Shown in pieces: positions 3,524-29,676 of a stretch of DNA of 37,709 nucleotides. Origin of the DNA: Planctomycetaceae bacterium (GTDB taxonomy: Bacteria > Planctomycetota > Planctomycetia > Pirellulales > Thermoguttaceae); NCBI GenBank assembly GCA_009783865.1, contig WRCR01000001.1:1-37709 (forward strand), read 5' to 3'. The first letter of the stretch is position 1; each line of letters begins with the position of its first letter. Under the pieces are notes generated by a model. It saw nothing but the letters and a program-made list of their open reading frames with translations. It searched no databases and was not told where the DNA came from. The translations under genes and the position numbers were made by a program.

Positions 3524-3527
3524 AGTA

Positions 3528-10100: not shown

Positions 10101-13100
10101 ACCCAAGTTAAACCGGTGTAGGTGTTGTCGGCTGTTAAAGTCAGGATACCGGCACCCATTTTGGTCAGCGTAGTGCCGTTCCAGTCAGCCCGCCTGTTAG
10201 CCCAAACGTCGGGACGGCTTCCGGGAGTAATATCCTCAAGCACCATGCCGAGCGTGAACGAGTTGTCAACCGTGAAGTCGCCGTGCGCCGGTTTGCCTGT
10301 CTTCGTGCTGTACCATGAGAGGAAAGTTCCAACCACGACTTGTTTGCCGTTATCGGTAACTTGGACTCCGTTTTCGTCAACGAGTTTCGCATATACCGTA
10401 AGATAATCAACGCCGTTAGAACCGTCAATCGTAACATTCGGATTGAAGCCCGTGATGATACCGTTTGCCGCTTCAATGAGCGTGCTGGAAACCTCCGGTT
10501 CGTTATACACCGGCGGTTCGTATTTTTCAAAGCCGTAAACATTCAGCGTTGCGTTGCCAAGGTTGATGTTTCCGTCTTCGGCAAAAATTGCAACGGGACT
10601 GTCTTCCGTAAAAGTAAAGTGGAAGGTGTAGCCCGCGCCGGCAACGTTCATCGCTAAATCCGGTGTGCCGGTCGCTTTTTCGTTACTGACTACTACGCCA
10701 TTCGGGTCAACGTAAACGTTTTTCTCTGCGGCAGTAAGTACATTGCCGCCGGTTTTCCTGTCGTTGTCGCCGAAATAGACGGCATCGCCATCCATGAAGG
10801 CGTAAATTACGATGGAGCCGTTGTCGCCGAGTTTGCCGTACCAGTTAGCGTGTTCATCGCTGGAAACCCACCAGCGTTTTGGACCATCGCCGTCATCTTT
10901 CGGGTCAGCACCCGTCCAAACAACTTCGGTGTTTCCGCCGCCGTTTTCCGCTACGAGATATAATTCCTTGTCGATGTTATCGGTGAAGAGACCGTACATC
11001 ATTTCGATAGTCCGTGACCGCACCGGAATATACGGGGTGTCATCGTTGCCTAAATACAACTGCCCCATGTTATTGAACGTGTTGTCTTTGTCAGCCGAGG
11101 CAAGGAAAATCTTGTCTCCGCTAAATACGTCAGCAGGGTCGAATCTAACGTTGCTTCTGTCCACCGTTATTGTTCCGGCGGAGAGTTCCAGGAACGGCAC
11201 GGTGACGTTTCTATCGCTCAAGTCAAACGACCACATACTGCCTTGACCGAAGTTGATGCTTCCCGCCGCAGTAATTTGCGTGTTGTGTTTGCTAATCAAA
11301 AGTGTTGACTCAGCGAAATTGATGTTGCCTAAAGCACCGGTATCCGGGTTCACCTGTGCGTCAATGATGTGTCCGCCCAAGCCCAAATCGAAAGTATAAC
11401 GCTGGTTAGGATTGGCAATGTTGTCAACTAGCATATTACCGACCGTGACCGGTTCTGCGATTCTAACGTTTCTGCTCTTGACGATTCTGTCGCCGGCATC
11501 TTCAATGAAAAGAACGGTGTCCCTGTCCATGAACGTGTTGACGATGAGTTCATCGACATATCCCGTCCAGTTCGGCGTAGGATTCGGGGCATGAATACCT
11601 TCGACTTTGTCCCAAGTATTTACATTGCCGAGTGTTCCGCCTACCCAAGTCAGGATAGCCGAAGCGTCATCCTTTGCCTGCACGAGTTTCAACAGGTTGT
11701 CGCCGCCGTCGTCAATACTCTTGTACGAAAGACCGGTCATCATACCGACAGAAACGGTTCTGCGTACGGGAGCCGCCACTTGTACATAACCGCCGAAGCC
11801 GTCGGATTCCCAAAGTGTACCGGGATTCACAATGTTGATGTTTCCGGCATCGCAAGTAATTTCGGCAAGTACGTATGGGGACGGCAGCAGATTCGCCAGC
11901 GTATTGCCCAGATAGACATCGCTGAAGAACTCTACGCCTGCCGCTCCGTTAAATACGACAATCGGGTTGTCGCCGCCGCCCGCGCCTTTGGCAAGAAGAT
12001 TATCGAAATAAACCGCTCCGCCTGCGCCAAGGAGAACTTTGTCGTCTGCCGAAATCGTTACCGGCGAGTTGTAATCAACATGAATTCCCGCTGTACCGAA
12101 ATCAATTCTGCCGACTGCTCCCGTTTTGGCATCCGCTTTTGCTTCAAGGATAGTACCGCCGCCCGCTTGTGTGAAGTCAAACACATAACCGCTGCCGTCT
12201 ACCGTCATATCGCCGACCCGCACCGGAATGGTAAAGTAAATGTCGGCTTTGTTAGTGACAATTTGTGAAACGCCGTTCTCGTCTATGTAAGTATCGCTGA
12301 ACAGCACGGTATCGCCGTTCAAGAAAGTATAAACGCCGCGTCCGCCGACTTTGCCGAACCAATTCGGTGTTCCCGCTAAGGGCGGGTCGCCCGGCACTAC
12401 ACTATCCCAAAGCAGCGGATTGCCGATATCTTTTCCTGTCCATTGAAGAGGATTATCCGGACCGGCATTAGCCATGGAATCCCACATCGAAAGCACTACC
12501 ATTGAGTCAGGACCCGCCTCGCCGTCCATGAGTCCAAGTCCGAAGATTTCGCTGTTTCCGGTCACGCCATCTATAAACCCGCGTTCTGATGAATCCCGCT
12601 GTTTTACTCCGGCAATATACAGGTCGCCGGTTGGGATACCGAATTTGCCCTTATCCACTTCCATAAGAATAAGGTAGTCCCCTCGATTGAAGTCGAAGTT
12701 TGGGTCGGTCGGTTTGTTGGCGTAGAAATCACTTCCGACAACGATTATTTCGCCATCACCAGTGGATACTTTCAGGTCAAGGAACGGACCATCGAAATAT
12801 GGATGCACATCTCCCTGCGGAGTTGCGTTTTTGGTTATTTCCTCGAAGTTTAACACGCTGCCGACCGCGAAGTCAAACGTTTTAGCAGTGATTTGCGTTA
12901 CGGCTTCTATGGAAAAATCTTTGGCAACGATAGTCGCCTTGTTAGCGGCATAAACACTTGCAACATTGTTTGTGAAGACGAAATCCAAGGTCCCGGCATC
13001 GATATGGCGGCTTCCGTCTACACCGTCATCAGCGGCAATAAATCTGCCGTCGTTTCCGAGATTCAAGATAGCACCGACTGCACTATTTTCCGACCCAAGA

Positions 13101-16100
13101 GCAAGTGTACCTTCCGTGAAAGTGAAATTTACGATACCGGGTGTGAGAATGGGCGTAGGCGCAGCCGCATTGCCGAACTTACTTGTTCCAACAAGCCGCC
13201 ATGTTCCTGCGCCGGTTTTGGAAAGTTCCACTTCGGTATTAGCATCGCTGAACATACCGCCGCGCTGTGTCAGGGTGCGTTCATCTGCAACATCGACATT
13301 AAATTGGTTGCCCGCTCCTGTGAAGAAGACGCTGTCATCGGCGTTTTTGTTTCCGGCAGTGTTCACGGTAACACCTATAACGGTATCAACATCCACAACA
13401 TTGACGTTAATAAGTGTACCGGCACTGTAAATGGCACCGCCGGCATCTCCGGGCAGGTCACCGGCTTTCATAGCGCGGTTGCCTTTGAAATTCGTGTCGG
13501 TTAGCGTCAGTTCTCCGCCTTGAGTGAAGATAGCACCGCCGCGGTCAGCATAGTTGCTCTTGGCATGTCCGCCGAGTGTATCACCGAAGTCGCCGCCGGT
13601 TATATCCACTATTCCATTATCGTTGTAAATAGCACCGCCTTGAGAAGCGATATTGCTGGTGAATAGGTTTCTGCCGTTCTCATCGGTAAAAATCAGTATA
13701 CCCTTGTCGTTGTAGACAGCACCGCCGAGACCGTCGGTTTCGCTGACGATGTTTGCGTCAAACAAAACGTGGTCGAAGGTCATGTCTCCGGCACCCCGGG
13801 CAGCGGTATTAAATACAGCACCGCCTTTTTTGCCGATAGTACCGACGTTGTTGCTAATAAAATCGGCATCCGCCATTATAACATTACCGGCATTCCAGAT
13901 GGCACCGCCTTCTGCCGCTTGGTTTTCTACAAACTCAATGTCTGTCAGGGTAAGCAGCCCGACTATGTCGTCGTTGTAGATAGCACCGCCGAATCCGCCT
14001 ACTCCGGGAGCGATAAGTGCGCGGTTGCTCTCGAACACCATTCCCTTGTGTTCTCTGCCGTATTGGTCTATCGTCCGAAAACCGGCACTATCGATAAGCA
14101 GGGCAGCAGTGTCAACATTGTTGGGGTTGGTATGATAGATAGCACCGCCGTGGTCAGCAGTATTCGATGTGAAAAGACCGCCGTAGATATTGACTATACC
14201 GCCTTCATTATAAACGGCACCGCCCTTTCCGCTGTTGGGCACTGTTCTGCCGTCAATAGTCGATGTTGCAAGGTTATGTGTGAATCTGACATTCGCAAGA
14301 TTAATTGTACCGGTTTCCGTGTTGTAAAGTGCACCGCCGAAAGCAGCCAGGTTGCCTAAGCCCGTGCCCCCGCCGAAAACACCGCCGTAAAGATAAGGGT
14401 TGCGCACCGGTATTGGGTTTCCGTCCTCGTCCTTCGGAGGTTCTCCTCCAATGACATTGCCGTCTTCGTCGTATATTAATATCGCATTATTCCAAAATGA
14501 CAGTACTCCATTGTCACTATTGTAAATGGCACCGCCCTTTTCGGCGATATTGTTTGTGAACGTACTAAAACCCGTGCTAAAAAGCTTACCAGCGAAGTCA
14601 CTAGTCGTCGCCATGAAGGTCATCGGCTGCTCGTCGTTGAATATGGCACCGCCGAGTCCGCCGCCGACATATCTATACGCTATTATGTGAGTACCACTTG
14701 ACAGCACGGTATCATTAAGTTGCACAATTTGGTCGCGGTTCCGGTTGCTAAGCACAGTTCCGGGAACCTCGATGACGTTGGGACCATCCGTAAGCGTTCT
14801 GGGACCGGGAAGCACAGTTCCGGCTGGAAGCACAGTTCCGGCTGGCAGCACATTGCCGGCAGGGAACCAGGTGTCAACAAGCAGCGGCGGTCCGCCGGGT
14901 ATTTGGGTTCCGGCAGGAAGCGTCATACCAAGCCCTGTAAGGTAGCCGGTAGAACCGTATCTTGCCGTTCCGGGAATTGTTAACGGGTCAGTCAGCGTTA
15001 TCGCTTCAGCAAGTGCGGTATTACTTGCAAACTCAATGCTAAAACGGGTGTCAGGGGATAAGCCCGAACCGGAAAACCAGTTGGAAAACGTTTGGCTGCC
15101 CGAAACTGTGTGGTCACTGTACACCATTCCAGCCGTGTTATTGCGGAAGCGGGTAGTTCCTACGACTTCCATGTTTCCGCCGCCGGTTGTGTAGATAGCG
15201 CCGCCGTGTTTACCGGCGACATTGCCTTCAAATAAAGCAGCGGCAACATCCGCCTGCGCTATGGCATAACCGTATCGATACGAACCCAGTCCCGTACTAA
15301 CCCAGTCCTGTATAAAAATCTCTGCAAGTGCTTCTTTGGAAATGTAAATGTCCAAGGGCGTTTTTTCCGGGTCAGGCCAAGGAATAATATTTGTATTGCC
15401 GACTTGCCCTGCTTTTCCCGTTGCTTGTGCTGCCGCTGCAATGGGAGAAGTGGTGATGAACCGAAGTGTTCCCTCGTTGTTGTAAATCGCACCGCCGCTG
15501 TCAGTTGATTTGTTGTCCGTAAAGACGCTGCCGTATGCCGTTGATTCGGCATAAGAGCGGGAACCATATTCGAAGGAGCGTAAACTGCTGGGGTCGCCAA
15601 ACTGCGGGTAAATGTACGGGTACCCTATGTCGCCGTCAGGAGGCATTTGCGAGGGGTCATAACCATAAGCCGTCCCCAAGTTGAAATAGAAATTATCGTT
15701 AGAAAAAGTAGCACCACTGGTATTATTAGTTGGCGTAGGGTTAGCCCAAGAGTAGACATTAAGATTGCTGTCGGCATCAGCGGTAATGGCGGCAGTGAAG
15801 GTCAGCGTTCCTTGTTCGTTGTAAACGGCACCGCCTCTGTCGGCTCTGTTGTCCTCAAATTCACTGCCGATTGCTTTGGAAATTGCTAGTGCTGTGGCAT
15901 TTGCGTTGGCAAAAGCAATACCGGTGCCGCTTCTGTTTGCAGTCGGGTTGGCATTGGCAATAGCCGATGCGGAATCAGCAACAGCATTAAAGGTCATGTT
16001 CCCGCCGTTAAGGTAAATTGCGCCGCCCTGACCGTTATAATTACCGGTACCGTTGTCAACACCTGCGGCGTTTCCTTTGAAAATACCGGCATTGGCGATT

Positions 16101-17662
16101 GCTTCTGCAAGCGAGTCGGCAAGCGCGAAAGATGTACCGATACTGCCGGTACCGTGCGTAGACGTGGAGGTAGCAGTGGCAACAGACACGGCACCTTGGG
16201 CATCCGCCGAAAATACCATTGAACTGCTTTCACCTGAAATGTTTTTATCTAAGTAGATAGCACCGCCGGCAGTTTCTGCCTTATTGCCTACAAAAACACC
16301 CCCTTTGGCATGTGCGATAGTGTTCGTATTCACCTCTGATACCGGACGAGTTTGATTCGCGCTGGATTCAGCGATAGCGGTAGCGGTTGCCGAGGCAGGA
16401 CTAGCCGTTGCCAGCAACTCAAGCGTTTCGTTGGTGTAAATCGCGCCGCCGACTTGCTTTGCAGTGTTGTTCAGAAAATAACCGGCAGTAGCATCCGTTT
16501 TATGAGGTGCTCCAGCACGGGAACGCTGCATGTTACCCGTAGTATTGGAGATAATCGTGAGAGTATTATTGGCAGCGTTAGGAGTGGAAAGAACGATAAA
16601 ATTCAATGTTCCATCGTTGTTGTAAATCGCACCGCCGGAACCGGTGAAGGCAACATTATTCCGAAAAATGTTAATTGAAGTGTTGATTCCGCTTCTGCTG
16701 TAAATAATCGGCGGACTCCACTGAGGGCTCCTGCTTGACTGAAAATGTCCGCTGCTTGTTTGAATACCGTTAATAGCGGAAGCGTCAATCGTTATTATTC
16801 CGGTGTTGTTGTAAATTGCTCCTCCGTCTTTATTGGCAATATTACCCTCGAACAGGTTGCTTGCGGGATTTCTTCCCGGGAAAAAATTTGCCGGCGGCAT
16901 ACCATTTTTATTAGGCGGGAAACGATTTGAGTCCGAAGACCAATCGTTTTTGAGAGCATCGATATTTACTTTTCCGCCGTAGGTATAGATAGCCCCGCCG
17001 AATTGCTGTGCCGCGTTTCCGGTAAAATCAACCAACTGGATATTGACATTGCCTCTATCGTTGTATAAGGCACCGCCGCCGCCCGCTCCTTCAACGCTAA
17101 GCGAGGAGTTGTTGTCGAAGAAGAGAACAGAGAGATTTATTGTTGCGCGCCCGTTGAAAATCGCGCCGCCGCGCTGTTCGGTTACATTGTTCGTGAACCC
17201 AAAAGTTCCGGTGCCTGTGGTGGTCCAACTTTCCCACGAAGGAGGAGCACCGGAAAAGGTGAACAAGTTACTGACACCGATAACCGAAATCGCACCGCCG
17301 TCCCGCTCTTCGTAGGCATTATCGAAAACGAGTTTATTAGTAATACCGGCATCGAGATCGGAAACGACATAGATACCGCCCTTGTTGTACAACGCTCCTA
17401 ATTCGAGATGTGCTTTGCCGCCGAATGCATCTTGGTACACGAAGTCGCCGTTAATCACGCCTTCTTTGATAACGAGCCCAGACTCGCTGGTATAACCGGG
17501 AACGGACGTGCTGACATCGTCAGGGGTTATAGTTAGCGGCGTTTGCGCATAAGCGTTATGTCCCATCGCGGGAAACATACCGAGTATGATAGCCAGTACA
17601 CCGGCGGCGAATTTTGCTTTTGTAGATGACTTCTTCCTTGATGAAGTAATGCTCTTTTTCAT
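7139..17662 (-). CDS. giant type Va autotransporter adhesin with polymorphic-membrane-protein (Pmp) repeats, 3507 aa
   Basis: Signal peptide MKKSITSSRKKSSTKAKFAAGVLAIILGMFPAMGHNAYAQ. About two dozen GGA[ILV][YFW] motifs by my count (GGAIYNN, GGAIYTYG, GGAVYNE and others), often followed by F-x-x-N as in Pmp repeats. Autotransporter-associated beta-strand repeats are present (LTKMGAGILTLTADNTYTGLTWVKEGTLQIG; LTKYGDGTLYLNANNTYTGLTRVAEGTL). The C-terminal ~280 aa (about 7142-7980) is a beta-barrel-like domain of alternating hydrophobic residues ending ...TLTVRW. Confidence 0.85.
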   Translation of the reverse strand: MKKSITSSRKKSSTKAKFAAGVLAIILGMFPAMGHNAYAQTPLTITPDDVSTSVPGYTSESGLVIKEGVINGDFVYQDAFGGKAHLELGALYNKGGIYVVSDLDAGITNKLVFDNAYEERDGGAISVIGVSNLFTFSGAPPSWESWTTTGTGTFGFTNNVTEQRGGAIFNGRATINLSVLFFDNNSSLSVEGAGGGGALYNDRGNVNIQLVDFTGNAAQQFGGAIYTYGGKVNIDALKNDWSSDSNRFPPNKNGMPPANFFPGRNPASNLFEGNIANKDGGAIYNNTGIITIDASAINGIQTSSGHFQSSRSPQWSPPIIYSRSGINTSINIFRNNVAFTGSGGAIYNNDGTLNFIVLSTPNAANNTLTIISNTTGNMQRSRAGAPHKTDATAGYFLNNTAKQVGGAIYTNETLELLATASPASATATAIAESSANQTRPVSEVNTNTIAHAKGGVFVGNKAETAGGAIYLDKNISGESSSMVFSADAQGAVSVATATSTSTHGTGSIGTSFALADSLAEAIANAGIFKGNAAGVDNGTGNYNGQGGAIYLNGGNMTFNAVADSASAIANANPTANRSGTGIAFANANATALAISKAIGSEFEDNRADRGGAVYNEQGTLTFTAAITADADSNLNVYSWANPTPTNNTSGATFSNDNFYFNLGTAYGYDPSQMPPDGDIGYPYIYPQFGDPSSLRSFEYGSRSYAESTAYGSVFTDNKSTDSGGAIYNNEGTLRFITTSPIAAAAQATGKAGQVGNTNIIPWPDPEKTPLDIYISKEALAEIFIQDWVSTGLGSYRYGYAIAQADVAAALFEGNVAGKHGGAIYTTGGGNMEVVGTTRFRNNTAGMVYSDHTVSGSQTFSNWFSGSGLSPDTRFSIEFASNTALAEAITLTDPLTIPGTARYGSTGYLTGLGMTLPAGTQIPGGPPLLVDTWFPAGNVLPAGTVLPAGTVLPGPRTLTDGPNVIEVPGTVLSNRNRDQIVQLNDTVLSSGTHIIAYRYVGGGLGGAIFNDEQPMTFMATTSDFAGKLFSTGFSTFTNNIAEKGGAIYNSDNGVLSFWNNAILIYDEDGNVIGGEPPKDEDGNPIPVRNPYLYGGVFGGGTGLGNLAAFGGALYNTETGTINLANVRFTHNLATSTIDGRTVPNSGKGGAVYNEGGIVNIYGGLFTSNTADHGGAIYHTNPNNVDTAALLIDSAGFRTIDQYGREHKGMVFESNRALIAPGVGGFGGAIYNDDIVGLLTLTDIEFVENQAAEGGAIWNAGNVIMADADFISNNVGTIGKKGGAVFNTAARGAGDMTFDHVLFDANIVSETDGLGGAVYNDKGILIFTDENGRNLFTSNIASQGGAIYNDNGIVDITGGDFGDTLGGHAKSNYADRGGAIFTQGGELTLTDTNFKGNRAMKAGDLPGDAGGAIYSAGTLINVNVVDVDTVIGVTVNTAGNKNADDSVFFTGAGNQFNVDVADERTLTQRGGMFSDANTEVELSKTGAGTWRLVGTSKFGNAAAPTPILTPGIVNFTFTEGTLALGSENSAVGAILNLGNDGRFIAADDGVDGSRHIDAGTLDFVFTNNVASVYAANKATIVAKDFSIEAVTQITAKTFDFAVGSVLNFEEITKNATPQGDVHPYFDGPFLDLKVSTGDGEIIVVGSDFYANKPTDPNFDFNRGDYLILMEVDKGKFGIPTGDLYIAGVKQRDSSERGFIDGVTGNSEIFGLGLMDGEAGPDSMVVLSMWDSMANAGPDNPLQWTGKDIGNPLLWDSVVPGDPPLAGTPNWFGKVGGRGVYTFLNGDTVLFSDTYIDENGVSQIVTNKADIYFTIPVRVGDMTVDGSGYVFDFTQAGGGTILEAKADAKTGAVGRIDFGTAGIHVDYNSPVTISADDKVLLGAGGAVYFDNLLAKGAGGGDNPIVVFNGAAGVEFFSDVYLGNTLANLLPSPYVLAEITCDAGNINIVNPGTLWESDGFGGYVQVAAPVRRTVSVGMMTGLSYKSIDDGGDNLLKLVQAKDDASAILTWVGGTLGNVNTWDKVEGIHAPNPTPNWTGYVDELIVNTFMDRDTVLFIEDAGDRIVKSRNVRIAEPVTVGNMLVDNIANPNQRYTFDLGLGGHIIDAQVNPDTGALGNINFAESTLLISKHNTQITAAGSINFGQGSMWSFDLSDRNVTVPFLELSAGTITVDRSNVRFDPADVFSGDKIFLASADKDNTFNNMGQLYLGNDDTPYIPVRSRTIEMMYGLFTDNIDKELYLVAENGGGNTEVVWTGADPKDDGDGPKRWWVSSDEHANWYGKLGDNGSIVIYAFMDGDAVYFGDNDRKTGGNVLTAAEKNVYVDPNGVVVSNEKATGTPDLAMNVAGAGYTFHFTFTEDSPVAIFAEDGNINLGNATLNVYGFEKYEPPVYNEPEVSSTLIEAANGIITGFNPNVTIDGSNGVDYLTVYAKLVDENGVQVTDNGKQVVVGTFLSWYSTKTGKPAHGDFTVDNSFTLGMVLEDITPGSRPDVWANRRADWNGTTLTKMGAGILTLTADNTYTGLTWVKEGTLQIGDGRRTGAVAGDIRIENGALAAFNRSNTITYNGEITGGAGANAAQIGVGKLILTGNSSNFGGTFTQANGIVHLESTAKLGGNFIQGTGTTLTSDNGAELKNAIFGGIVDPTGTLNVLGTAAFIGAHVDLNLLSNDRIVAIGNVSFTNTVIHIDNTGFVSNVPQLLISSNGIMTDPGNIYDLVDKNVRGGGYYDNNALWYTALGGGENITWNGSGSVDEWNTDTANRNWLHGGIGNTFFMTGDTVTFSNNPNAAKGVVVQDGGVDVAKMTVEDAYAFSGGQIRVSGEVLVTKDGVLGLDVAGRDKRDDAALKADTVKFNAGGAVDLAISGYDPYQDSPYYVPMNRQWAIATENGIIIDDVNKRLNVTINKQSQLDFLNAAAVLENNNKDVVIETQLTWDSKQKDTAHGDFTVKKDTFKDGFTLGAVLSNNAPNNTYNKAIDKSGTLWDGTALTKYGDGTLYLNANNTYTGLTRVAEGTLGGHGSVAGKMKVEKGAAFSPGDKVNPFGTFVVGGDVFFEAGSTYQYDVNNSGQGDLLVAAGGKVTIEKGAELVVEGTGEFGKYYQVIDAGATQLKPQPLFTLVGNNRFGQFIGNYNGDYGYWLKWRGLSEILDGYGSPNAVNAAKAVDVIDSLGQSGRLGNLYDVLDSLSGDPKMLADAFAQLHGEVYASNKEAAAQLHRSFLKLLPSCRDFVYPGSRSRQCNIWATVTGDWQGRSSIKQYSGYSLSTIGTAIGIDQMIMPGNLIGISFGYDNANQNFKTLNSTSEIDAWRIILHNSMCKGGYFVDSYAGYSKNSYDINRGICINNGAFAGSAKSYYSDDMFSAGVEVGSAQNLGSLILTPSAGLHYMYLSSPSVNEKDGGYANLRVDGAHFSSMRVPVGFKMSRTFGARVGGLSWTPEARLYYIHELGNNGARVTTAFGSVPEVKFTANSGPRGHANGLVGVGFAVQETNWFKFRLDYDCEVFERCVINNVLSTTLTVRW
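14808..14861 (-). repeat. 3 x 18-nt in-frame tandem repeat inside the autotransporter
   Basis: On the + strand, ggaagcacagttccggct occurs twice perfectly (14808-14825, 14826-14843), followed by the variant ggcagcacattgccggca (14844-14861). On the - strand this encodes PAGNVL-PAGTVL-PAGTVL. Confidence 0.85.
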
Positions 17663-17807
17663 GGCGACCGTACTTCCTTGTAATTTTTCGGAATTTTGGC
17701 ATTCGGAATTGGCAAAACAGGCGGTCTACGCTATGCGTCTGCAACGCAGGCAAGACACCCTATTTCATTTTTCGGCATTCCGCAAGTTAAAATTAAGAAA
17801 AAAATTA

Positions 17808-17886
17808 GAGAGACGGCAGATTGCAGACGGCAGACGGCAGCGAATTCTTCCGACTGCAATCTGCAATCTGCTGTCTGCCGCCTCTC
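17808..17886. repeat. imperfect palindrome built from opposed heptanucleotide arrays (GCAGAnn family)
   Basis: Left arm heptamers: GACGGCA GATTGCA GACGGCA GACGGCA (17812-17839). The centre is gcgaattcttcc, which contains GAATTC. Right arm heptamers: GACTGCA ATCTGCA ATCTGCT GTCTGCC (17852-17879). Outer arms GAGAGACGGCAGA (17808-17820) and TCTGCCGCCTCTC (17874-17886) are complementary in 12 of 13 positions. Inner heptamers pair through the GCAGA cores (5 of 7). Confidence 0.75.
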
Positions 17887-18063
17887 TTCCCATTCCACCC
17901 ATTTTTCCCCATTCCCGCAATACATACAACGGGACGGCTCGGTACGATTGCTACTACTAAAATCACCGATTTTACTAAAATTTGCGGTACGATTGTTTCG
18001 ATTAACAATAACTGAAACACCGGACTATTCCCGTTGTTCGTCAAAAACGTAAGGAGACGAAAA

Positions 18064-21000
18064 GTGACGAAGATTTATACGAATGTTCCATCCATGATAG
18101 CGCGTGCGCAACTGCACCAGAACATGGCGACGCTGCAGACCTCGCTGCAGCGGTTAAGCACTGGATTGCGTATTAACAGCGGTAAAGATGACCCCGCCGG
18201 CTTAATCGCCAGCGAAGTTCTGCGTTCCGACATCACCGGCATCAAAATGGCAATCAAGAATACTGAACGCGCCAATATGATGATTGCCACGGCGGACTCC
18301 GCCCTGAACGAGGTAACAAATCTGCTCAACGACATTCGCGGTCTCATCACCGAAGCCGCAAACACCGGCGCAATGAGTGCCGAGATGATAGCCGCCAACC
18401 AGTTGCAGGTTGACGCTTCTCTCGATGCCATCGACAGAATTGCCGCTATGACAACGTTCATGGGGCAAAAACTCCTCGACGGCTCACTGGACTTCGATAA
18501 AACCGGCGTGAACAGAAACGACTTGCGGGATTTATCCGTTCATCAGGTTACCTTCGGTGCCGATAAAAGTCCGATTGACGTTACCATTAACATTCAACAA
18601 CCCGCCAGTAAGGCGGAGTTGTATTACAGGAATCCCGCTATTGCCGAAGAAATGGTTCTGCAATGGGGCGGAAATTACGGCTACTGGCAGGAATCGTTTC
18701 AACGGGGCGCAACCGTTGCGGAAATTGCCCGGGTTGTCAACGCCACTTCCAATTCCACCGGTGTTATTGCCGAAGTCGGTTCAGACGCAATGTACGGCAT
18801 GCTCTACGTGAGCGGATTGGGTCCCGACAACGACATGATAATTCAAGCCGGTCAGCCCGGTGTTAATGCCGGCAACATTGAAATCAAGTATGTGGCGGGT
18901 TCGTCCAAAGGCGTTCAAGTCAAATACGAAGAAGGAATCAGCGCGGGTTCACCGGGCAAAATCACCGTCTATCTTCAGACGGAAGAATACAAAAAGTCAA
19001 CTGCCGATGCGGTTGATAACTCGTGGATTAGAGACCCGGTCACCGGTAAGCCGGTCTCACCGCTGCATGATAACAGCGCGCTGCGGTTTGAAGCGAACAT
19101 TCCCGGCTCGCAGTACAACAATGCCAATATTCATTATGTTGATGCCCAAAGAACCGACGCAAGTTTCGCAGACCCGAACAAAAACCCGGCCGGTTCAGCG
19201 AATTATCCTTACGCAAAGTATAATGATAATGCAACCAGTTCCGTTTCGCTTTTCGGCGATGTAAACGGATTGGGAGGAAGCATCGGTGACCTAACCAGCA
19301 GTATTATTGCCGGCAGCGGCGACTATTTTTCGATTCAATCGCGTGAAGGAAGTTCTGCGTATAATAATGTCGAAATAGAGTTTGTGAAAAAAGCAGCCGG
19401 TTCAACGGAACTGAACGGACGCAAAGCGTCCGCCGTTTATACTGAAGAAAAAGACATATACGGTAATGTTAAAGAGAATGGTAAAAAATTAACTATCTAC
19501 TTTGATGATACCGGTACGGCAACACTGCAAGATGTACAAGACGCATTGCGGATAGAACGGCACGAAAAAGACGGAGGAATGGTAACCGGTGCTTTCGAGT
19601 TGAAATCATCTGTTCCTGCTTCGAGTATTGTTCTTAATGGGGCAGCGGCTGTTGATACCGTTGCTGCAAGCGGCAACACCCACAACAGCGGCGGTGAAGC
19701 AGGAACACTGTTTATCTATCTGCCGCCGCCGACAGGTCCCGATGGTATTTCGAGATTTCCTGCCGGACATCCGATGGCAGGACAGCCTATCACAGCGAAT
19801 GATATTGCTGCTCTCTTCGACCTGGACAATAATGCTTCAAAGGGCAGTGAACGTGCTGCCGGTTTGTTCACCGTTACTAATACCGTGGACAACGACGGAA
19901 CGGGCAGTATCTATTTATATGATAATATCCCCGGCAATGTGAAGGCAGTGACCGCTTTCACGAAAGCATTTAAAGGCGGTGTCACCGGCGGCGATGTTAT
20001 AACAACTGCGGCGGAACTTATCACCGTGTTAAACAATTCGGCGTATTGGGGAACGATGATGTGTCCCGAAATGATTGCCGAACTCGCCGTTGAAAATGCC
20101 GACGGCAAGTATTACGACTTGATACCGGACAAGCCCGTTGTTATGGCGCGGCTTGCCCCGAACAATAACGGACTACAAGCCGTCAAGGTTTTTGAAGAAG
20201 TTGCTTATTACGGCAATCCAAACGAAGGTACCGGTTTGCAATTCCTTGGCGAAAAGGACTCGCCGAGCATTCGATTCGTTGCTGAACCGGGCAACAGCCA
20301 ACTCTGGATAGACCGGACAACTGTACCGGCATCCGAAGGATTGTCGCAAGCCGTTTTAACAGCGCAGGAAGGCGGCGCAAGTTTGACAATAACCGCTGTC
20401 AAAAAAGGCGGCGATTACGACGACGTTCAATTTGTCTTCAAACGGATTAACGAAGATGTACTGGCAGTAATCTCACCTGACCGCGCAGACGGCTGGGTGG
20501 AATATGACCCCGGCGTGTCTCAAGCGGAAGCGCACGCCGTCTTTCGGGATGCCACATCGTCAACACCGGTTGCGAACACGGGATTTTACATCAAAGCAAC
20601 TGAACGCGGCGACATGTATAATAACGTTGCCATTCAGATGCGGCTCGATGACACTATGGCGGACATCGAGGACGGAATTCAGGACGGCATCGTTGTTAAG
20701 TTTGATTCCAAGACCAACAGTTTGCAGATTGCGATAGACAGCACAAAAGTTGGAAGCATAACTGCGAATGATGTAATAGCAGCGATTAACAATGCCAAAC
20801 TAGGTTTTACTGCGGAACTTTCTTTCGCAGAAGATATTAACAACACCGGACTCGGAACATTCGACACCATCGGTTTGTCAACCGGTCGGCTGACTGAAAT
20901 CGCCAACACCGGAACGACCGGCGGACACAAAGGCGGAACCGTTACCGTCTGGCTCGCTGACGAGATTGACGGTGTTCCATATATCCCGCCGACTCAAGAT

Positions 21001-22650
21001 GATATTGTCCGTCTCATCAACAACGACCCCGTTGTCGGAAGATTGTTCACGGCAAAGGCGTACAATACTGTTGAAACCACCGACAGCAGGCAGATTAACT
21101 TCGTCAAAGACGGACCTATCGTTTCTCAAGGCGGTTTGATTCAAAAAGCGGTTATAACGGTGCATCTTGTAACCGACCAGTACGGATTGGTTCAAACCAC
21201 TGCGAAGGATTTGCAGAATTGGTGGAATGCGCAAGACCCCGCATACGTGGAAAACATCAGCGTCAGTATTGTTCGTCCGCAAGGTGCGCAGTGGGATGCA
21301 TGCGATGACCCTTACGGATACGGAATACTCAAGCCCACCGTTTCACTCGGCGACTGTAATGAAATTATCGTCAACGACATTCAGTTTGTCGGCTGGAACG
21401 ATAATGCCGAACAGCAGAATTACGTTGCAAAGTATTCGACCGGTACAATGACTTCGCAGCGGGGCATCAATTCCTCGTATCAACTGATTGCACGTCAACT
21501 CGGACCCGATTGGGACGGTTATACTATTAGGTATATCAACGATGATTCGCTGACGGGGCGTTATGCGGATAATGTCGTAGCGGGTTCTTCCGATAATCCC
21601 TGCGATGGCGAAGAATACAACGGCTTGAAACGTGATGACTGCGGAAACCTGATAACGCCGGTCAGCGGTACCGAGAACGGCATGCGGCTGGTAATGGACC
21701 CGATAACTAAAGAGATAACGATTTATGTTAAGTTCGGAGCGACTACCGCAAGCGACATTGAGCAGTTAATTGAAAATGATGTCCGCACCCGAAATTATTT
21801 CAGTGTCAATCAACTCGGTGACGGCACCGGACTTATCAATCTCGATGACAATACGCTGCTCACAACGGGCGGAGCAATACCGCCGGGCAATCTGAACGGC
21901 GCGAAACTTATACAGGGTGCCGATGCCAGCGATTACTTCCTGATATTCAAATCACAGGAATATGGAAGTGATAAATTCGTCGATGTGCGGGCTTATGCTC
22001 CAACCGGCGGAACGACATCTTTCACGGTGCAGGATTCCAAAGGAAAGACCGTTGAGAAAACCTACGGACAGGATGTACTCGCTTTGGTTAACGGTGTGAA
22101 GGCAGTCGGGCGCGGCTTGAACGCTTCGCTGAACACTTCTATTCTGTCGCTGGACTTTACATTGAGCGAAGATTCCGGGACTGACCCGAATTATTCCTCG
22201 ACTTTCACTATCAACGGCGGCGGCGCAACTTATCAGATAGGTCCCGATGTTGTTTCCAATCAGCAAATCACGCTGGGAATACAAAGTGTCAACACGGCGC
22301 AACTCGGCGGCGCAAGCGGCAAGTTGTATCAGTTGCGCAGCGGACAAGATGCTTCGTTGACGAATGATACTAACAAGGCGTTCCGCATCGTTCAGGAGTC
22401 GATTTTATCGATAACGCAGGTTCGCGGTCGGCTGGGAACGATTCAAAAGGCGACGTTTGATACTAACATTAACGTGTTGAATGACACACTGCAAGCGTTG
22501 ACGGAAGCGGAAAGCCAAATCCGTGATGCCGACTTTGCGGAGGAGACGGCAAACTTGACGCGGGCGCAAATTCTGGTGCAGGCAGGCATAAATTCGCTGG
22601 GTATAGCGAATCAACTGCCGCAGTATGTATTGAGTTTGCTCGGACGATGA
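18064..22650 (+). CDS. giant flagellin, 1528 aa from GTG 18064
   Basis: The N-terminus has ARAQLHQNMATLQTSLQRLSTGLRINSGKDDPAGLIASEVLRSDITGIKMAIKNTERANMMIATADSALNEV (flagellin N domain). The C-terminus has RGRLGTIQKATFDTNINVLNDTLQALTEAESQIRDADFAEETANLTRAQILVQAGINSLGIANQLPQYVLSLLGR (flagellin C domain). AAGGAG at 18051-18056 lies 7 nt before GTG 18064, so I prefer that start over the track's TTG 18034. Confidence 0.9.
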   Translation: MTKIYTNVPSMIARAQLHQNMATLQTSLQRLSTGLRINSGKDDPAGLIASEVLRSDITGIKMAIKNTERANMMIATADSALNEVTNLLNDIRGLITEAANTGAMSAEMIAANQLQVDASLDAIDRIAAMTTFMGQKLLDGSLDFDKTGVNRNDLRDLSVHQVTFGADKSPIDVTINIQQPASKAELYYRNPAIAEEMVLQWGGNYGYWQESFQRGATVAEIARVVNATSNSTGVIAEVGSDAMYGMLYVSGLGPDNDMIIQAGQPGVNAGNIEIKYVAGSSKGVQVKYEEGISAGSPGKITVYLQTEEYKKSTADAVDNSWIRDPVTGKPVSPLHDNSALRFEANIPGSQYNNANIHYVDAQRTDASFADPNKNPAGSANYPYAKYNDNATSSVSLFGDVNGLGGSIGDLTSSIIAGSGDYFSIQSREGSSAYNNVEIEFVKKAAGSTELNGRKASAVYTEEKDIYGNVKENGKKLTIYFDDTGTATLQDVQDALRIERHEKDGGMVTGAFELKSSVPASSIVLNGAAAVDTVAASGNTHNSGGEAGTLFIYLPPPTGPDGISRFPAGHPMAGQPITANDIAALFDLDNNASKGSERAAGLFTVTNTVDNDGTGSIYLYDNIPGNVKAVTAFTKAFKGGVTGGDVITTAAELITVLNNSAYWGTMMCPEMIAELAVENADGKYYDLIPDKPVVMARLAPNNNGLQAVKVFEEVAYYGNPNEGTGLQFLGEKDSPSIRFVAEPGNSQLWIDRTTVPASEGLSQAVLTAQEGGASLTITAVKKGGDYDDVQFVFKRINEDVLAVISPDRADGWVEYDPGVSQAEAHAVFRDATSSTPVANTGFYIKATERGDMYNNVAIQMRLDDTMADIEDGIQDGIVVKFDSKTNSLQIAIDSTKVGSITANDVIAAINNAKLGFTAELSFAEDINNTGLGTFDTIGLSTGRLTEIANTGTTGGHKGGTVTVWLADEIDGVPYIPPTQDDIVRLINNDPVVGRLFTAKAYNTVETTDSRQINFVKDGPIVSQGGLIQKAVITVHLVTDQYGLVQTTAKDLQNWWNAQDPAYVENISVSIVRPQGAQWDACDDPYGYGILKPTVSLGDCNEIIVNDIQFVGWNDNAEQQNYVAKYSTGTMTSQRGINSSYQLIARQLGPDWDGYTIRYINDDSLTGRYADNVVAGSSDNPCDGEEYNGLKRDDCGNLITPVSGTENGMRLVMDPITKEITIYVKFGATTASDIEQLIENDVRTRNYFSVNQLGDGTGLINLDDNTLLTTGGAIPPGNLNGAKLIQGADASDYFLIFKSQEYGSDKFVDVRAYAPTGGTTSFTVQDSKGKTVEKTYGQDVLALVNGVKAVGRGLNASLNTSILSLDFTLSEDSGTDPNYSSTFTINGGGATYQIGPDVVSNQQITLGIQSVNTAQLGGASGKLYQLRSGQDASLTNDTNKAFRIVQESILSITQVRGRLGTIQKATFDTNINVLNDTLQALTEAESQIRDADFAEETANLTRAQILVQAGINSLGIANQLPQYVLSLLGR

Positions 22651-23061
22651 TTAAAAGTCATCGCCGTAGCCGTCATCGCTGAAGGCATCGTTTTTGCGGA
22701 ATCTTCTGCCTCTTCCTCCGCCGCGATGTTCACGGGGACTTTCGTAGTGTTCCTCTCCCCGTGAATCGCCGCTTCGCGGGTCAATATCCCGAGGCGGAGC
22801 AATTTCACGCGGCGGACGAGGATTGCCCGTATTGTCGTTTGCCTTGAATTCAGGTCGGTCACCGAAAATACGATGTAAAATCTCCTGAACATCTTCTGCG
22901 GTCTCGGTGACAAGCAGTTCGCTTGCATCCCGGAAATGCAGCGCACTTCCGTTCTTCACGTTTTTCACGAAAACAAGTTCATTGAGGTTGACGACTACCG
23001 CACCCGAATTGTTCGTAAAAAAAACAAACTGCGGTGCCGCTGCATTGTTATGTTGTGCCAT
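22651..23061 (-). CDS. small protein with a possibly FlbD-like N-terminal ~60 aa and a disordered R/G/D/P-rich tail, 136 aa
   Basis: FVFFTNNSGAVVVNLNELVFVKNVKNGSALHFRDASELLVTETAEDVQEIL loosely follows the FlbD pattern (..N-G....N......I.L..G...V.E..EEV.E.I) as I remember it. The tail RPPREIAPPRDIDPRSGDSRGEEHYESPREHRGGGRGRRFRK is low-complexity. The coding call is moderately safe; the functional call is weak. Confidence 0.4.
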   Translation of the reverse strand: MAQHNNAAAPQFVFFTNNSGAVVVNLNELVFVKNVKNGSALHFRDASELLVTETAEDVQEILHRIFGDRPEFKANDNTGNPRPPREIAPPRDIDPRSGDSRGEEHYESPREHRGGGRGRRFRKNDAFSDDGYGDDF

Positions 23062-23292
23062 TGCTATTCTCCAAGTTGCGAAATTAAAACAACAGCGGAT
23101 ATTCTAACAGAGACAAAACGGAAATGCAAGAGGAGAAATTTTTTGTGAAATTTTTCGTTTTTGCGATTTCCCTCTTGTAATTTTTCCGAAGATAAAGGAC
23201 AATGCTCGTGTTGTACGGTAGTTTATCGTTTATTTTTTCCTAAAACCGCCGCTTATAACGGCTGGGTTAAACTTTTTGTTAGGAGTTTTCAA

Positions 23293-24561
23293 ATGCAGAA
23301 CCTTATGATGTTCGTTTGTTCGATTGTTTCCGTAACCACAGAAGGGATAAAAGTAGGTAATTTGAGGGGGGGAAACGAAATAATACGAGCGGCGGGCATA
23401 CGCCCGCCGGTAAATGACGCTAAGAGAGCGTTTACGCTCGTAGAACTACTCGTAGTTATCGCCATTATCGGCGTTCTAATCGCATTACTTTTACCCGCAG
23501 TGCAGGCAGCCCGTGAAGCCGCAAGAAGAATGCAGTGTACCAATAATCTTAAGCAACTGTCATTGGCGGTTCACAATTACCACGATGTGAATAACGCGTT
23601 GCCGACCTGTATGTCGGCTATCCACAAAGCGGTTCTCGACCCTGCAAATCGCGGACAGTGGACTTTCAGTGTGCTGACGAAGGCATGTTCTTTCATTGAA
23701 GCACAGGTAACCCTCGATGCAATGGCGAATGAACCTAGTTGCAGTACGCAAGGGGGAACCGATTCTTCATTTCCGCTTGAAATCAGGAACAAGAACTTTG
23801 CGTGGCTAATGTGTCCTTCCGGCGGCAATGAACCGCCCTGCACCGACTGGGGCGGTCCCACCATTAGCGGTGTAATAAACAACACCAGTCGGCATAATTA
23901 CGGACCTATGACCGGTGATATTGCTCCTACAATAGGAACTTCGGGAACAGACCAGTGGGGCTGGGCTCCAAATACCTCTGCTAACATACCTGGCGCGGTT
24001 CCTTGCCGCCGCGGCTTTTTTGATTTGAGAATGTCGTGGAAGAATTTTTCGGCAATAGAAGACGGACTCTCAAATACACTTTGTTTTTCGGAGCGGCTGG
24101 GAGTTGCAGGTCCGAACCGGACTGCTCCGGGCAACGACTGGGACCCCAAAAATCCGAAAAGGGGAAATGTCTATGGCAATTTTACAACCCGAAATGACTG
24201 CATCACGCTGGCACAAGGAACTTATTCCGGGTCACGAAATGCTTTCGGTTCAATCTGGACAGAAGGAAAGGCGGCAGTTTGTACTCTTCAAACAATTCTT
24301 GCCCCGAATGCGGCGGCTTGTTTGAGCGGCAGCAACTGGGGAAGCGGCGGAAAATCCTTGAATTCACCCTCAAGCAATCACAGCGGCGGCGTAAATGCTG
24401 CGCTGGGTGACGGCAGTGTGCGTTTCGTTTCGGAAACGATTAACACCGGAAGCGATTACACGACAGCAATACCGACTCAAGCGTCAACAAGCGGTGCTTC
24501 GCTCTGGGGTGTTTGGGGAGCAATTGGCAGTGCAATCGGAAAAGAAAGCGTAACGTTATAG
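23293..24561 (+). CDS. prepilin-type N-terminal cleavage/methylation domain protein with DUF1559 / H-X9-DG C-terminal motif
   Basis: [55 protein letters not shown] is the classic type IV pilin-like N-terminus plus DUF1559 start. [17 protein letters not shown] is H-X9-DG. ATG 23293 was chosen because of AGGAG at 23281-23285. That gives an unusually long ~49-aa leader; an in-frame TTG at 23362 is an alternative. Confidence 0.85.
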
Positions 24562-27811: not shown

Positions 27812-28112
27812 TTCCTTGTCCTTCTATGTTGTTCCTTTTGAGAACAATTACGCTTTTGACGGAGGATTATGGATTATAAAACCGCATCGTGCGGGAAATC
27901 TTTCGTTTTTTTGTGCAAGATTTTTTTCGGCAGACGATACAAGCGGTATAACGCGCAGAGTTGTTTTGTCCTGTTGCTATAAACAGCGGATTTATTAACG
28001 GCGATATTCGAGACCGCTTATTGAAAGCCGAAAAGTTTTGATATTGCAAACGCATACAATTTCGTGTAAAATGTCGAAAACGTTTAGAAATAAAGGGAAA
28101 CTGGCGGGGACA

Positions 28113-28532
28113 ATGGCAGACCATTTGACGAAAGAAAAACGCTCGTGGAATATGAGCCGTATCCGATCAAAGGAAACCGCTCCTGAAATTGCATTCCGTA
28201 AATTGATATATCGGGCAGGGTTTCGTTATCGGCTTTATGATAAAACACTTCCCGGAAAGCCGGATTTAGTCATGAAAAAACACAAAATCATTGTTTTCAT
28301 TCACGGCTGTTTTTGGCACGGACATGAAAACTGCCGGAGGGGAAACAAACCGAAAACGCATAAAAAATACTGGAACGCAAAAATTAAAGGGAACGTTGCA
28401 CGGGATAGAAAAAACATTACAACGTTGGAAAATTCAGGATGGCGGGTTTTCGCCGTTTGGGAATGTGAATTGAAAGATTTAGAAACCGTTTTACAAAAAT
28501 TCAAGGAATTTGTCGGGACAAAAGATGCCTAA
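28113..28532 (+). CDS. vsr: very short patch repair endonuclease
   Basis: MADHLTKEKRSWNMSRIRSKETAPEIAFRKLIYRAGFRYRLYDKTLPGKPDLVMKKHKIIVFIHGCFWHGH...NVARDRKNITTLENSGWRVFAVWECEL is collinear with E. coli Vsr (MADVHDKATRSKNMRAI...FTHGCFWH...NVERDRRD...GWRVLIVWEC). Confidence 0.9.
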   Translation: MADHLTKEKRSWNMSRIRSKETAPEIAFRKLIYRAGFRYRLYDKTLPGKPDLVMKKHKIIVFIHGCFWHGHENCRRGNKPKTHKKYWNAKIKGNVARDRKNITTLENSGWRVFAVWECELKDLETVLQKFKEFVGTKDA

Positions 28533-29676
28533 AGAAGTAGCCCAACCTAAAATTTTGTCGCTGTTTTCCGGTTGCGGAGGTCTTGACTGGGGGTTTCATA
28601 CCGCCGGTTATAGGACAGTTTGGGCTAACGACATCAATAAATGGGCGGTTAACACATTTCGCAAAAACTTTCCCGAAGCTGCCGTTTCGCAGGAAGATAT
28701 CGAAAAAATTAAGGGGAAAAAGTTAAAAGAAGTTCCCGATTGCGATTTAATCGTGGGCGGTTTCCCTTGTCAGGATTTTTCGGTGATTTGGAAACAGCCG
28801 GGGCTGGACGGTGATAGAGGCAACCTCTACAAACATTACCTACGCTTTATTGATGCGAAAAAGCCGTTGACGTTTGTTGCTGAAAATGTTAAGGGACTAT
28901 TGTCGGCAAATAAAGGACGTGCAATAGCGGAAATCTTAAAGGGTTTCGAGAACGCTGGCAATGGTTATATGGTGAAAATCCAACTCTACAACTTTGCGGA
29001 TTACGGTGTTCCGCAGTTTAGGGAGCGGGTTTTGATTGTCGGTGTCCGGCTTGACACGGGTTTTGAATTCGCTCACCCTGCCCCGACACACGGAGCAGGA
29101 CGGGTAGCGTATAAAACATCGGGGGACGCATTGCGGGACGTTGAAGCAATGGAAATGTTTCAGAAAGCACCGAAGTTTAATCGAAATGAAATTGGTATTG
29201 TGGAAAAAACACGAAAAATGTTAGAAATGATACCAGAAGGCGGTAATTTTACAGATGTTCCTACGGATAGTGAGTATTACGTCAAGGGTTTGATTAGTCA
29301 CGTTTATCGCCGCCTGAACCGGAATGAACCGTCAAAAACGATTATTGCGGCAGGCGGTGGCGGAACATGGGGCTATCATTACGAAGAACCCCGCCCACTG
29401 TGTAACAGAGAAAGAGCAAGATTGCAATCGTTCCCTGATAGTTTTGAATTCGAGGGTTCGGTCACAGAAGTCCGCCGTCAAGTTGGTAATGCTGTTCCGC
29501 CGGACGGCGTTAGATTAGTTGCAGAACGGCTAATGCCGCTTTTTACGGGGGAATATGAAAAAACGGATTTGCAAAAACTCCGTAATGAATTACAGAAATT
29601 ATCAATTAGGAAACGTTTGGAATACGATTTACAAAGGACTAAAGAAGAAAATTCAGAGATAGAAATAGCAACGTGA
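28525..29676 (+). CDS. dcm: DNA (cytosine-5)-methyltransferase
   Basis: ILSLFSGCGGLDWGF (motif I), GGFPCQDFS (motif IV, PCQ), ENVKGL (motif VI), QFRERVLIVG (motif VIII) and QVGNAVPP (motif X). ATG 28525 overlaps the vsr end by 8 nt. The track's TTG 28510 is an alternative start. Confidence 0.9.
   Translation: MPKEVAQPKILSLFSGCGGLDWGFHTAGYRTVWANDINKWAVNTFRKNFPEAAVSQEDIEKIKGKKLKEVPDCDLIVGGFPCQDFSVIWKQPGLDGDRGNLYKHYLRFIDAKKPLTFVAENVKGLLSANKGRAIAEILKGFENAGNGYMVKIQLYNFADYGVPQFRERVLIVGVRLDTGFEFAHPAPTHGAGRVAYKTSGDALRDVEAMEMFQKAPKFNRNEIGIVEKTRKMLEMIPEGGNFTDVPTDSEYYVKGLISHVYRRLNRNEPSKTIIAAGGGGTWGYHYEEPRPLCNRERARLQSFPDSFEFEGSVTEVRRQVGNAVPPDGVRLVAERLMPLFTGEYEKTDLQKLRNELQKLSIRKRLEYDLQRTKEENSEIEIAT

Follow-up and report, generated by a model that had tools for sequence, protein, structure and literature searches.

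A giant flagellin in a planctomycete contig

Thomson et al. (2018) counted 92 proteins of more than 1000 amino acids with the Flagellin_N domain (PF00669) in UniProtKB, described giant flagellins of Bermanella marisrubri (Q1N2Y3, 1020 amino acids) and Oleibacter marinus (1190 amino acids), and listed Planctomycetes (Blastopirellula marina) among the lineages with giant flagellins. The filaments of the flagellins of 1020 and 1190 amino acids have widths of 30 nm or more (PMC6248924), and these two gammaproteobacterial proteins are the only ones for which giant-flagellin filaments have been verified experimentally. The largest outer domain determined by cryo-electron microscopy (cryo-EM) is D2–D5 of the G. 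thiophilus flagellin, in which multiple outer domains widen the filament to 240 Å (PMC11532411). Here we analyzed a giant flagellin gene in a 37,709-nucleotide stretch of DNA from a Planctomycetaceae bacterium (positions 1 to 37,709 of contig WRCR01000001.1, assembly GCA_009783865.1); the whole stretch is called the window below. The gene (18064..22650, + strand, as are all features below unless stated otherwise) encodes a protein of 1528 amino acids (163 kDa, pI 4.5), which is probably the filament subunit of a planctomycete flagellum. Like the giants of Thomson et al., the protein has canonical D0/D1 ends around a very large insert, solvent-exposed in those giants, which seems likewise to have evolved by internal domain duplication and further insertion; those giants are smaller, whereas relatives of the window protein reach 2172 amino acids. 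The protein belongs to the giant flagellins (>1000 amino acids), a known class, and is not a new kind of thing. Its family, at 1.5 to 2 times the size of the verified giants, is conserved across many planctomycete bins, and for approximately 1000 residues of its outer domain no relative could be detected in solved structures.

In a Pfam scan of the 1528-residue protein, Flagellin_N (PF00669) matched residues 4–141 with 97.9 bits (cut-off 26.6) and Flagellin_C (PF00700) matched residues 1442–1526 with 65.5 bits (cut-off 23), and no family beyond these two was found. Both matches were above the gathering score, in agreement with an earlier note on this DNA, and the limits which that note had proposed for the conserved ends (N-terminal to about 18540, C-terminal from about 22290), leaving an insert of about 1250 residues, were reasonable by the Pfam placement. 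The family profile matched the D0/D1 domains of approximately 60 solved flagellins. The N-terminal D0/D1 core spanned residues 1–175 (18064..18588; best E = 1e-39 against solved flagellins) and the C-terminal D1/D0 core residues 1391–1528 (22234..22647), the latter ending in ...QYVLSLLGR. NCBIfam flagellin models gave E values of 4e-47 to 1e-35, against 1.4e-13 for FlgL; the FlgL model TIGR02550 scored 51 bits on the window protein, below its cut-off of 127.2 and below the 182–225 bits of true FlgL relatives. Mean identity to homologs was 83% in the N-terminal D0/D1 (residues 21–175) and 78% in the C-terminal D1/D0 (residues 1401–1526), 64% in the stretches flanking D1 (residues 176–250 and 1291–1400), and 52–58% in the bulk of the insert (residues 251–1290). 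That D0/D1 was the most conserved part fits selection on polymerization surfaces, the pattern expected of a polymerizing flagellin. Flagellinolysins likewise display a folded functional insert, an HEXXH metallopeptidase, on the filament; an enzymatic flagellin was ruled out here, because the window protein had neither an HExxH motif nor a match to a peptidase or other enzyme family.

The open reading frame (ORF) was uninterrupted over 4.6 kb and closed by TGA at 22648–22650. Three candidate start codons were present, TTG at 18034, GTG at 18064, and ATG at 18094, and by sequence comparison the GTG appeared to be the best supported. It is preceded at a distance of 7 nt by the putative Shine-Dalgarno sequence AAGGAG (18051..18056), and an (A)AGGAG-type sequence followed by a GTG start was found in 15 of 16 homolog upstream regions inspected. 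When residues 1–140 were used in tblastn, the alignment began at residue 1 in all 17 homolog-locus hits (about 15 distinct genes), and the resulting N-terminus, MTKIYTNVPSM, was common to homologs such as P0006 and P0013. The database entry for the protein (P0001, 1518 amino acids) corresponds to the choice of ATG 18094 by a gene caller. GC content was uniform across the gene and its flanks. Twelve homologs from other assemblies were colinear with the window protein from end to end (47–64% identity), and their alignment with it (A1) had a mean column identity of 69%, with hundreds of invariant columns within the insert. The ORF and the Pfam matches at its ends agreed with the intact 1528-residue flagellin that the earlier note had described, and its concern that the central region might be an assembly chimera was dispelled by the 12 colinear homologs.

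Repeated modules of the insert

The earlier note had ascribed the insert to serial duplication of one strand-loop-helix signature with at least eight occurrences, and had quoted seven examples. All seven were present in the protein (residues 299, 475, 548/576, 887, 959/977, 1030/1046, and 1217). The strict half-patterns of the signature, which had been devised after viewing the data, occurred four and two times, against 0.02 and 0.007 expected from 2000 shuffles of the insert. No internal repeats were detected by self-BLASTP, a DNA repeat search, or Tandem Repeats Finder. Repeats were then evident in profile-profile comparison by hhalign of non-overlapping sub-alignments of the family, for which 272 reversed-profile pairs served as the null (maximum score 18.8, 95th percentile 13.5). 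The duplications, visible only with profiles, are ancient and diverged.

Two module types were distinguished. Type A has the layout strand, G-x-x-Y-N-N, strand, variable stretch, strand, strand, loop, helix, and is present in four copies: Aa, residues 251–322 (18814..19029); Ab, residues 418–498 (19315..19557; pLDDT, the predicted local distance difference test score, approximately 90); Ad, residues 837–911 (20572..20796); and Ae, residues 1136–1238 (21469..21777), in which a loop of about 45 residues holds Cys1180 and Cys1193. The hhalign scores were 49.0 for Ab-Ad (probability 96%, E = 4e-9), 35.4 for Ad-Ae, 30.4 for Ab-Ae, and 28.9 for Aa-Ab (probability 66%). Two putative half-copies of type A were also found. 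The first, residues 339–360 (ALRFEANIPGSQYNNANIHYVD; 19078..19143), was weakly related to Ab by hhalign (22.2), and a regular expression for the hairpin matched four times, against 0.0045 in shuffles; the second, residues 770–795 (20371..20448), was likewise weak by hhalign (20.0) and agreed in its secondary-structure pattern. Type B has the layout S-G-G-x-x-G, strand, loop, helix, and is present in two copies, Ba at residues 537–591 (19672..19836) and Bc at residues 947–991 (20902..21036), with an hhalign score of 34.0 and a probability of 91% for the pair.

As judged from these profiles, the insert arose by serial duplication of two unrelated module families, A and B. The order A then B recurs at similar spacing, 119 residues from Ab to Ba and 110 residues from Ad to Bc, which points to duplication of a two-module block. 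The serial duplication proposed in the earlier note was therefore supported, with hhalign scores of 29–49 against a null maximum of 18.8; its single signature was wrong, because examples 1, 2, 4, and 7 belonged to type A, examples 3 and 5 to type B, and example 6 to neither. Example 6 (residues 1030–1055) lies in a strand-loop-helix stretch (residues 1018–1058; 21115..21237) that was well conserved and had a pLDDT of approximately 90; by hhalign, it was not significantly related to type A or B (probability 3.6% for Bc, 20% for Ae).

The insert was modeled with AlphaFold2 in two overlapping parts, residues 150–900 and 700–1420, each from an alignment of 29–30 sequences. Mean pLDDT was 73.6 and 71.0, respectively, with many blocks near 90 within residues ~280–710 and 710–1270. 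The predicted structures were mostly beta, and a strand-loop-helix was predicted at six of the seven quoted examples; at residues 299–319, the half of the example that should form the helix was predicted as a strand. At residues 206–227 and 646–657, additional sites of this kind were predicted, so that the count of at least eight occurrences holds at the level of predicted structure. Foldseek searches of both models against the PDB gave no credible match (best E values 1.1 and 0.04, probabilities ≤0.2); the top hits, esterases and neck and baseplate chains of phage 812, were treated as noise. Hits in BFVD were uncharacterized phage proteins only (best E = 4.6e-4, TM ≤ 0.33) and uninformative. 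Profile matches of A1 to the solved structures 9p7r, 9atl, 9yh1, and 3k8v reached profile position ~258, that is, the first outer module; beyond residue ~258 the insert had no relative among solved structures by either profile search or Foldseek.

This first outer module (residues 192–242; 18637..18789), a predicted beta-hairpin and helix, was the only stretch resembling the Pfam family Flagellin_IN (PF07196). The fragment of residues 212–241 (ATVAEIARVVNATSNSTGVIAEV) scored 17.7 bits, under the cut-off of 22.7; the equivalent site in the homolog P0021 scored 25.0 bits, and 15 of 30 family members matched at E ≤ 0.1. Flagellin_IN occurs in flagellins and FliD, and the helix consensus T-A-x-D-h-h-x-x-I-N of the quoted signature looks like it. 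The proposal that the signature is Flagellin_IN was rejected: eight fragments, the seven examples and the Bb site, had no PF07196 match at E ≤ 10, and hhalign of the Flagellin_IN-like module against types A and B stayed at background level. The likeness of the seven examples to PF07196 is therefore a resemblance only.

Two other stretches of the insert stand out by their conservation. The first, residues ~655–765 (...FEEVAYYGNPNEGTGLQFLGEKDSPSIRFVA...; 20026..20358), is one of the two most widely shared among full-length relatives; it gave multiple hits in distant members, and of the 68 full-length relatives, 61 covered profile positions 401–500. The second is a Cys/Trp-rich stretch at residues 1060–1135 (21241..21468), conserved in the A1 columns, for which no family or fold match was found. 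All five cysteines of the protein lie within the insert; Cys1080 and Cys1098, in this stretch, were invariant in 13 homologs, and Cys1180 and Cys1193 (21601–21642) were mostly conserved. These conserved cysteines hint at disulfide-stabilized surface modules.

Other flagellins with large outer regions were distinct from the window protein outside the core. Giants of the Oceanospirillales type share the DE region, the outer domain of P. aeruginosa flagellin in Thomson et al., with Pseudomonas and Legionella, whereas the window protein repeats two other module types (A four times, B twice). When the A1 profile was compared with the B-type flagellin of P. aeruginosa (5wk5 and 8sug), the best stretch covered only profile positions 4–135, in D0/D1; since P. 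aeruginosa flagellin was matched only there, the window flagellin apparently does not share the DE region, a comparison that did not extend to the Bermanella sequence itself. Flagellins with multi-domain outer regions (G. thiophilus D2–D5; PDB 9au6, 793 amino acids) show that outer domains can assemble into a surface lattice or a sheath; they had no sequence match to the window protein outside D0/D1 and no Foldseek PDB match at E < 0.04, and their outer region is about half the size.

Relatives and enlarged axial proteins

A search with the insert alone retrieved 30 proteins, all of them giant flagellins (1038–2172 amino acids, 35–64% identity), and those bearing a source name were labeled Planctomycetaceae or Thermoguttaceae. 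The same two labels accounted for every one of the 17 loci (16 distinct), all in metagenome-assembled genomes (MAGs), that were found when species-representative genomes were scanned with residues 940–1175. A profile search with the insert in 1.84 billion representatives gave 123 cluster representatives at E ≤ 1e-3, 49 of them at E ≤ 1e-30. Among 150 retrieved proteins, 68 were full-length flagellins with both ends (720–2172 amino acids, median 1540). The earlier note had considered a flagellin of this size unusual in a Planctomycetes-Verrucomicrobia-Chlamydiae-type genome; this did not hold, given the listing of Planctomycetes by Thomson et al. (2018), the 123 related representatives, the 68 full-length flagellins, and the 16 distinct MAG loci. 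The larger members (1839–2172 amino acids; P0003, P0004, P0023, P0026–P0028, and P0034) carry one extra block of 300–650 residues near residue ~540 of the window protein. The location of this block at one place, after the first type A modules, suggests that this position is a hot spot for expansion of the insert. Several related bins look like termite-gut bins: the label Th196 stands for the gut of Termes hospes (PMC7024585), and the other bin codes resemble codes of this type.

More distant relatives were located inside flagellar gene clusters. In locus L020, the order is an ORF with Flagellin_N only, fliW, csrA, a flagellin of 1432 amino acids, a methyltransferase, a fliD of 1253 amino acids, and fliS. 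The Flagellin_N-only ORF, 1001 amino acids and cut by the end of the locus, is probably flgL. The L020 flagellin was 30% identical to the window protein over residues 336–1526 and 46% in the N-terminal part. Locus L021, on an 822-kb contig, contains fliW-csrA-flagellin, and its neighbors, with PSD1, DUF1501, and PF07638 ECF-sigma domains, were read as planctomycete-type. In both loci, fliW-csrA lies directly upstream of the flagellin gene. The L020 methyltransferase (8221–9789 of that locus, 522 amino acids, PKMT-type domains), which separates the giant flagellin from the giant fliD, suggests lysine methylation of the flagellin in that relative; no methyltransferase of this kind adjoins the window flagellin gene.

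The insert profile also matched other axial proteins. Four were FliD proteins of approximately 1250 amino acids with FliD_N and FliD_C (P0104; P0127, at 10001–13762 of L020; P0144; and P0150), in which insert modules recur in proteins that also carry PF07196. Six were FlgL proteins of 899–1126 amino acids (P0100, P0109, P0125, P0137, P0140, and P0143), which scored 182–225 bits with TIGR02550 against the cut-off of 127; one of them, P0109 (10001–13039 of L022), lies within a flgFG-flgA-flgH-flgI-flgJ-flgN-flgK-flgL cluster. Very large beta-strand-repeat proteins without a flagellar domain were matched as well (P0097 and P0103; 3886 and 5977 amino acids). The recurrence of insert modules in giant FliD and FlgL indicates outer-domain modules common to three distal axial proteins. 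Thomson et al. asked if other parts of the flagellum are enlarged to match; the giant FliD (~1250 amino acids) and FlgL (900–1130 amino acids) with insert-related modules suggest that they are, and the whole distal flagellum seems to be enlarged in related lineages. This bears on the spread of outer-domain modules among axial flagellar proteins and provides a concrete target for cryo-EM or cryo-electron tomography.

Expression signals, proposed role, and neighborhood

A promoter-like motif, TAAAATTT-N13-TTCGATTA, with sigma-28-like -35 and -10 elements, precedes the flagellin gene at 17976..18004. It was the only match in the window, where 0.14 would be expected at ≤1 mismatch. In the form TAAAAYT-N15-TCGATWA, the motif occurred once per locus, on the + strand and always ahead of the flagellin gene, in nine fetched loci (L001, L003, L007, L009, L011–L014, and L018), and near-matches were present in five further homolog loci. 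The distant loci L020–L022 had no exact match; a looser TAAAGTG-N14-TCGATAG was noticed by eye ~340 nt upstream of the L020 flagellin. The sigma-28 consensus is TAAAGTTT-N11-GCCGATAA, and the assignment of the motif to sigma-28 is suggested by its resemblance to this consensus. A partial copy of the motif lies 45 nt farther upstream in the window (17940–17960 and 17985–18005). A second upstream element, TATTTTACCTAAC-GGAACA, which may be a regulator site, lies ~100 nt upstream of the promoter motif in L016, L019, L008, and L002 and is not obvious in the window.

Between the promoter-like motif and the start codon is a conserved 5' leader element, AACTGAAACACCGGACTATTCC (18010..18031; columns 45–63 of alignment A6). 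In most homologs the leader can form a 6-bp hairpin, GGAACA-CYGGAU-UGUUCC, with GGA in the loop as in a CsrA site. The helix was paired in 83% of A6 cells, and three pairs were changed on both sides, which is modest support; CsrA-type regulation through the leader is possible.

The data establish that the protein is a flagellin, that its gene is intact, that the insert contains repeats, and that the protein belongs to a family with relatives inside flagellar gene clusters; for filament assembly, filament thickness, regulation, and any function of the coat, we infer the following. The protein would pass unfolded through the flagellar type III export system, and its D0/D1 helices would polymerize into the usual 11-protofilament core. 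The middle of ~1200 residues would form a chain of small, mostly beta domains that coat the filament surface, and the outer region is probably the product of old duplications of two module types together with lineage-specific insertions. By extrapolation from the 1020- and 1190-residue giants (≥30 nm), the filament would be much thicker and protein-coated. Expression would probably be late-flagellar, through the sigma-28-like promoter. Together with this promoter, the relatives in fliW-csrA-fliD-fliS and flgF-to-flgL clusters lend indirect support to a flagellar apparatus in the genome and to polymerization of the protein. The title of PMC8931119 links outer-domain lattices to motility in viscous media, and a viscous gut lumen would, speculatively, fit such a role of the outer domains.

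Several observations speak against a filament subunit. Observed filaments of giant flagellins come from the two verified proteins of 1020 and 1190 amino acids, and none from the window family. Every NCBIfam flagellin equivalog or subfamily model scored below its whole-protein cut-off (for example, 160.9 against 332), as is to be expected because ~80% of the protein is an unmatched insert and only ~20% is alignable. Cysteines are atypical of flagellins, which usually lack them. The spacer of the sigma-28-like motif is 2 nt longer than that of the classical (E. coli) consensus, the window has a degenerate form of the leader hairpin, and its leader fold was not significant (z = -0.87). Finally, when the flanking ORFs were compared with flagellar Pfam families, no other flagellar gene was found within the 37.7-kb window. 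The Pfam scan of the window ORFs bore out the earlier note, which had called the gene an orphan flanked by no flagellar gene, and two examined homolog loci had no flagellar neighbors either; the term fails for the more distant relatives, which sit in fliW-csrA-flagellin-fliD-fliS clusters.

The isolation of the gene, in the window and at these two homolog loci, raises the question of a repurposed flagellin-like surface protein, which would be exported and act mainly as an adhesin or ligand receptor instead of a propeller. The Sphingomonas flagellin homolog p5, an alginate-binding cell-surface protein, is a precedent for such repurposing. An outer region that is large and conserved, with an invariant Cys/Trp-rich stretch, would suit this role, and PDB 3k8v, named "Flagellin homolog", is among the profile matches that extend into the first outer module. 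Type A modules occur also in huge non-flagellar beta-strand-repeat proteins, and one match has RTX repeats (P0097, P0103, and P0131). However, conservation is highest in D0/D1, which would be unexpected if polymerization had been lost, the relatives lie in fliW-csrA-fliD-fliS clusters, and the gene follows a sigma-28-like promoter. Pfam searches detected no domain typical of carbohydrate binding or of adhesins, and the orphan state is not evidence of repurposing because it is the same in the two homolog loci. We consider a repurposed protein unlikely, and adhesion and propulsion can coexist.

Less probable still, by about half, is that the protein is a minor or specialized flagellin beside one of normal size encoded elsewhere, confined, for instance, to one segment of the filament or to certain conditions such as high viscosity. 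Multiple flagellins are frequent in bacteria, the data here cover 37.7 kb of the genome, and L020 has its second Flagellin_N ORF beside the giant flagellin; that ORF may well be FlgL, none of the fetched loci showed a small flagellin, and conservation of the family extends to at least 16 species-level bins. The chance that the gene is an artefact, either an assembly chimera of flagellin ends and unrelated sequence or a decaying pseudogene, is negligible: nothing other than its unusual size favors this, and the 4.6-kb open frame, the uniform composition, the 49 relatives at E ≤ 1e-30, and the 12 homologs from independent assemblies, colinear over the whole length and sharing hundreds of invariant insert columns, exclude it.

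An extension of the filament-subunit interpretation seems to us doubtful. The lineage may have co-expanded FlgL, the filament protein, and FliD with one module set, giving an exceptionally thick, protein-coated filament, whose conserved surface (including residues 1060–1135) would serve a further purpose, such as binding of particles or polysaccharides or coping with a viscous gut lumen.

The neighbors of the flagellin gene in the window are a 3507-residue autotransporter, a DUF1559/N-methyl protein, restriction-modification genes, phosphoglycerate kinase, and peptidase M3. The autotransporter gene (7139–17662, - strand) is divergent from the flagellin gene and encodes an Autotransporter beta-domain with Chlamydia PMP and PATR repeats. 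The intergenic region between the two contains an imperfect palindrome (17811–17876) with 30-nt arms and the 7-nt repeats AGACGGC and CTGCAAT; the sole hit in an Rfam scan of 17600–23300, mir-H1, fell on this palindrome and was spurious. Three sets of restriction-modification genes were found near the flagellin gene, at 28038–31582, 33169–35535, and 2762–4385. Set a comprises a Vsr endonuclease, a C5 cytosine methylase, an NgoFVII-type endonuclease, and a helicase-like gene; sets b and c comprise a type I-like N6 methylase/specificity fusion and an N4/N6 methylase beside a DUF6996/DUF6997 protein.

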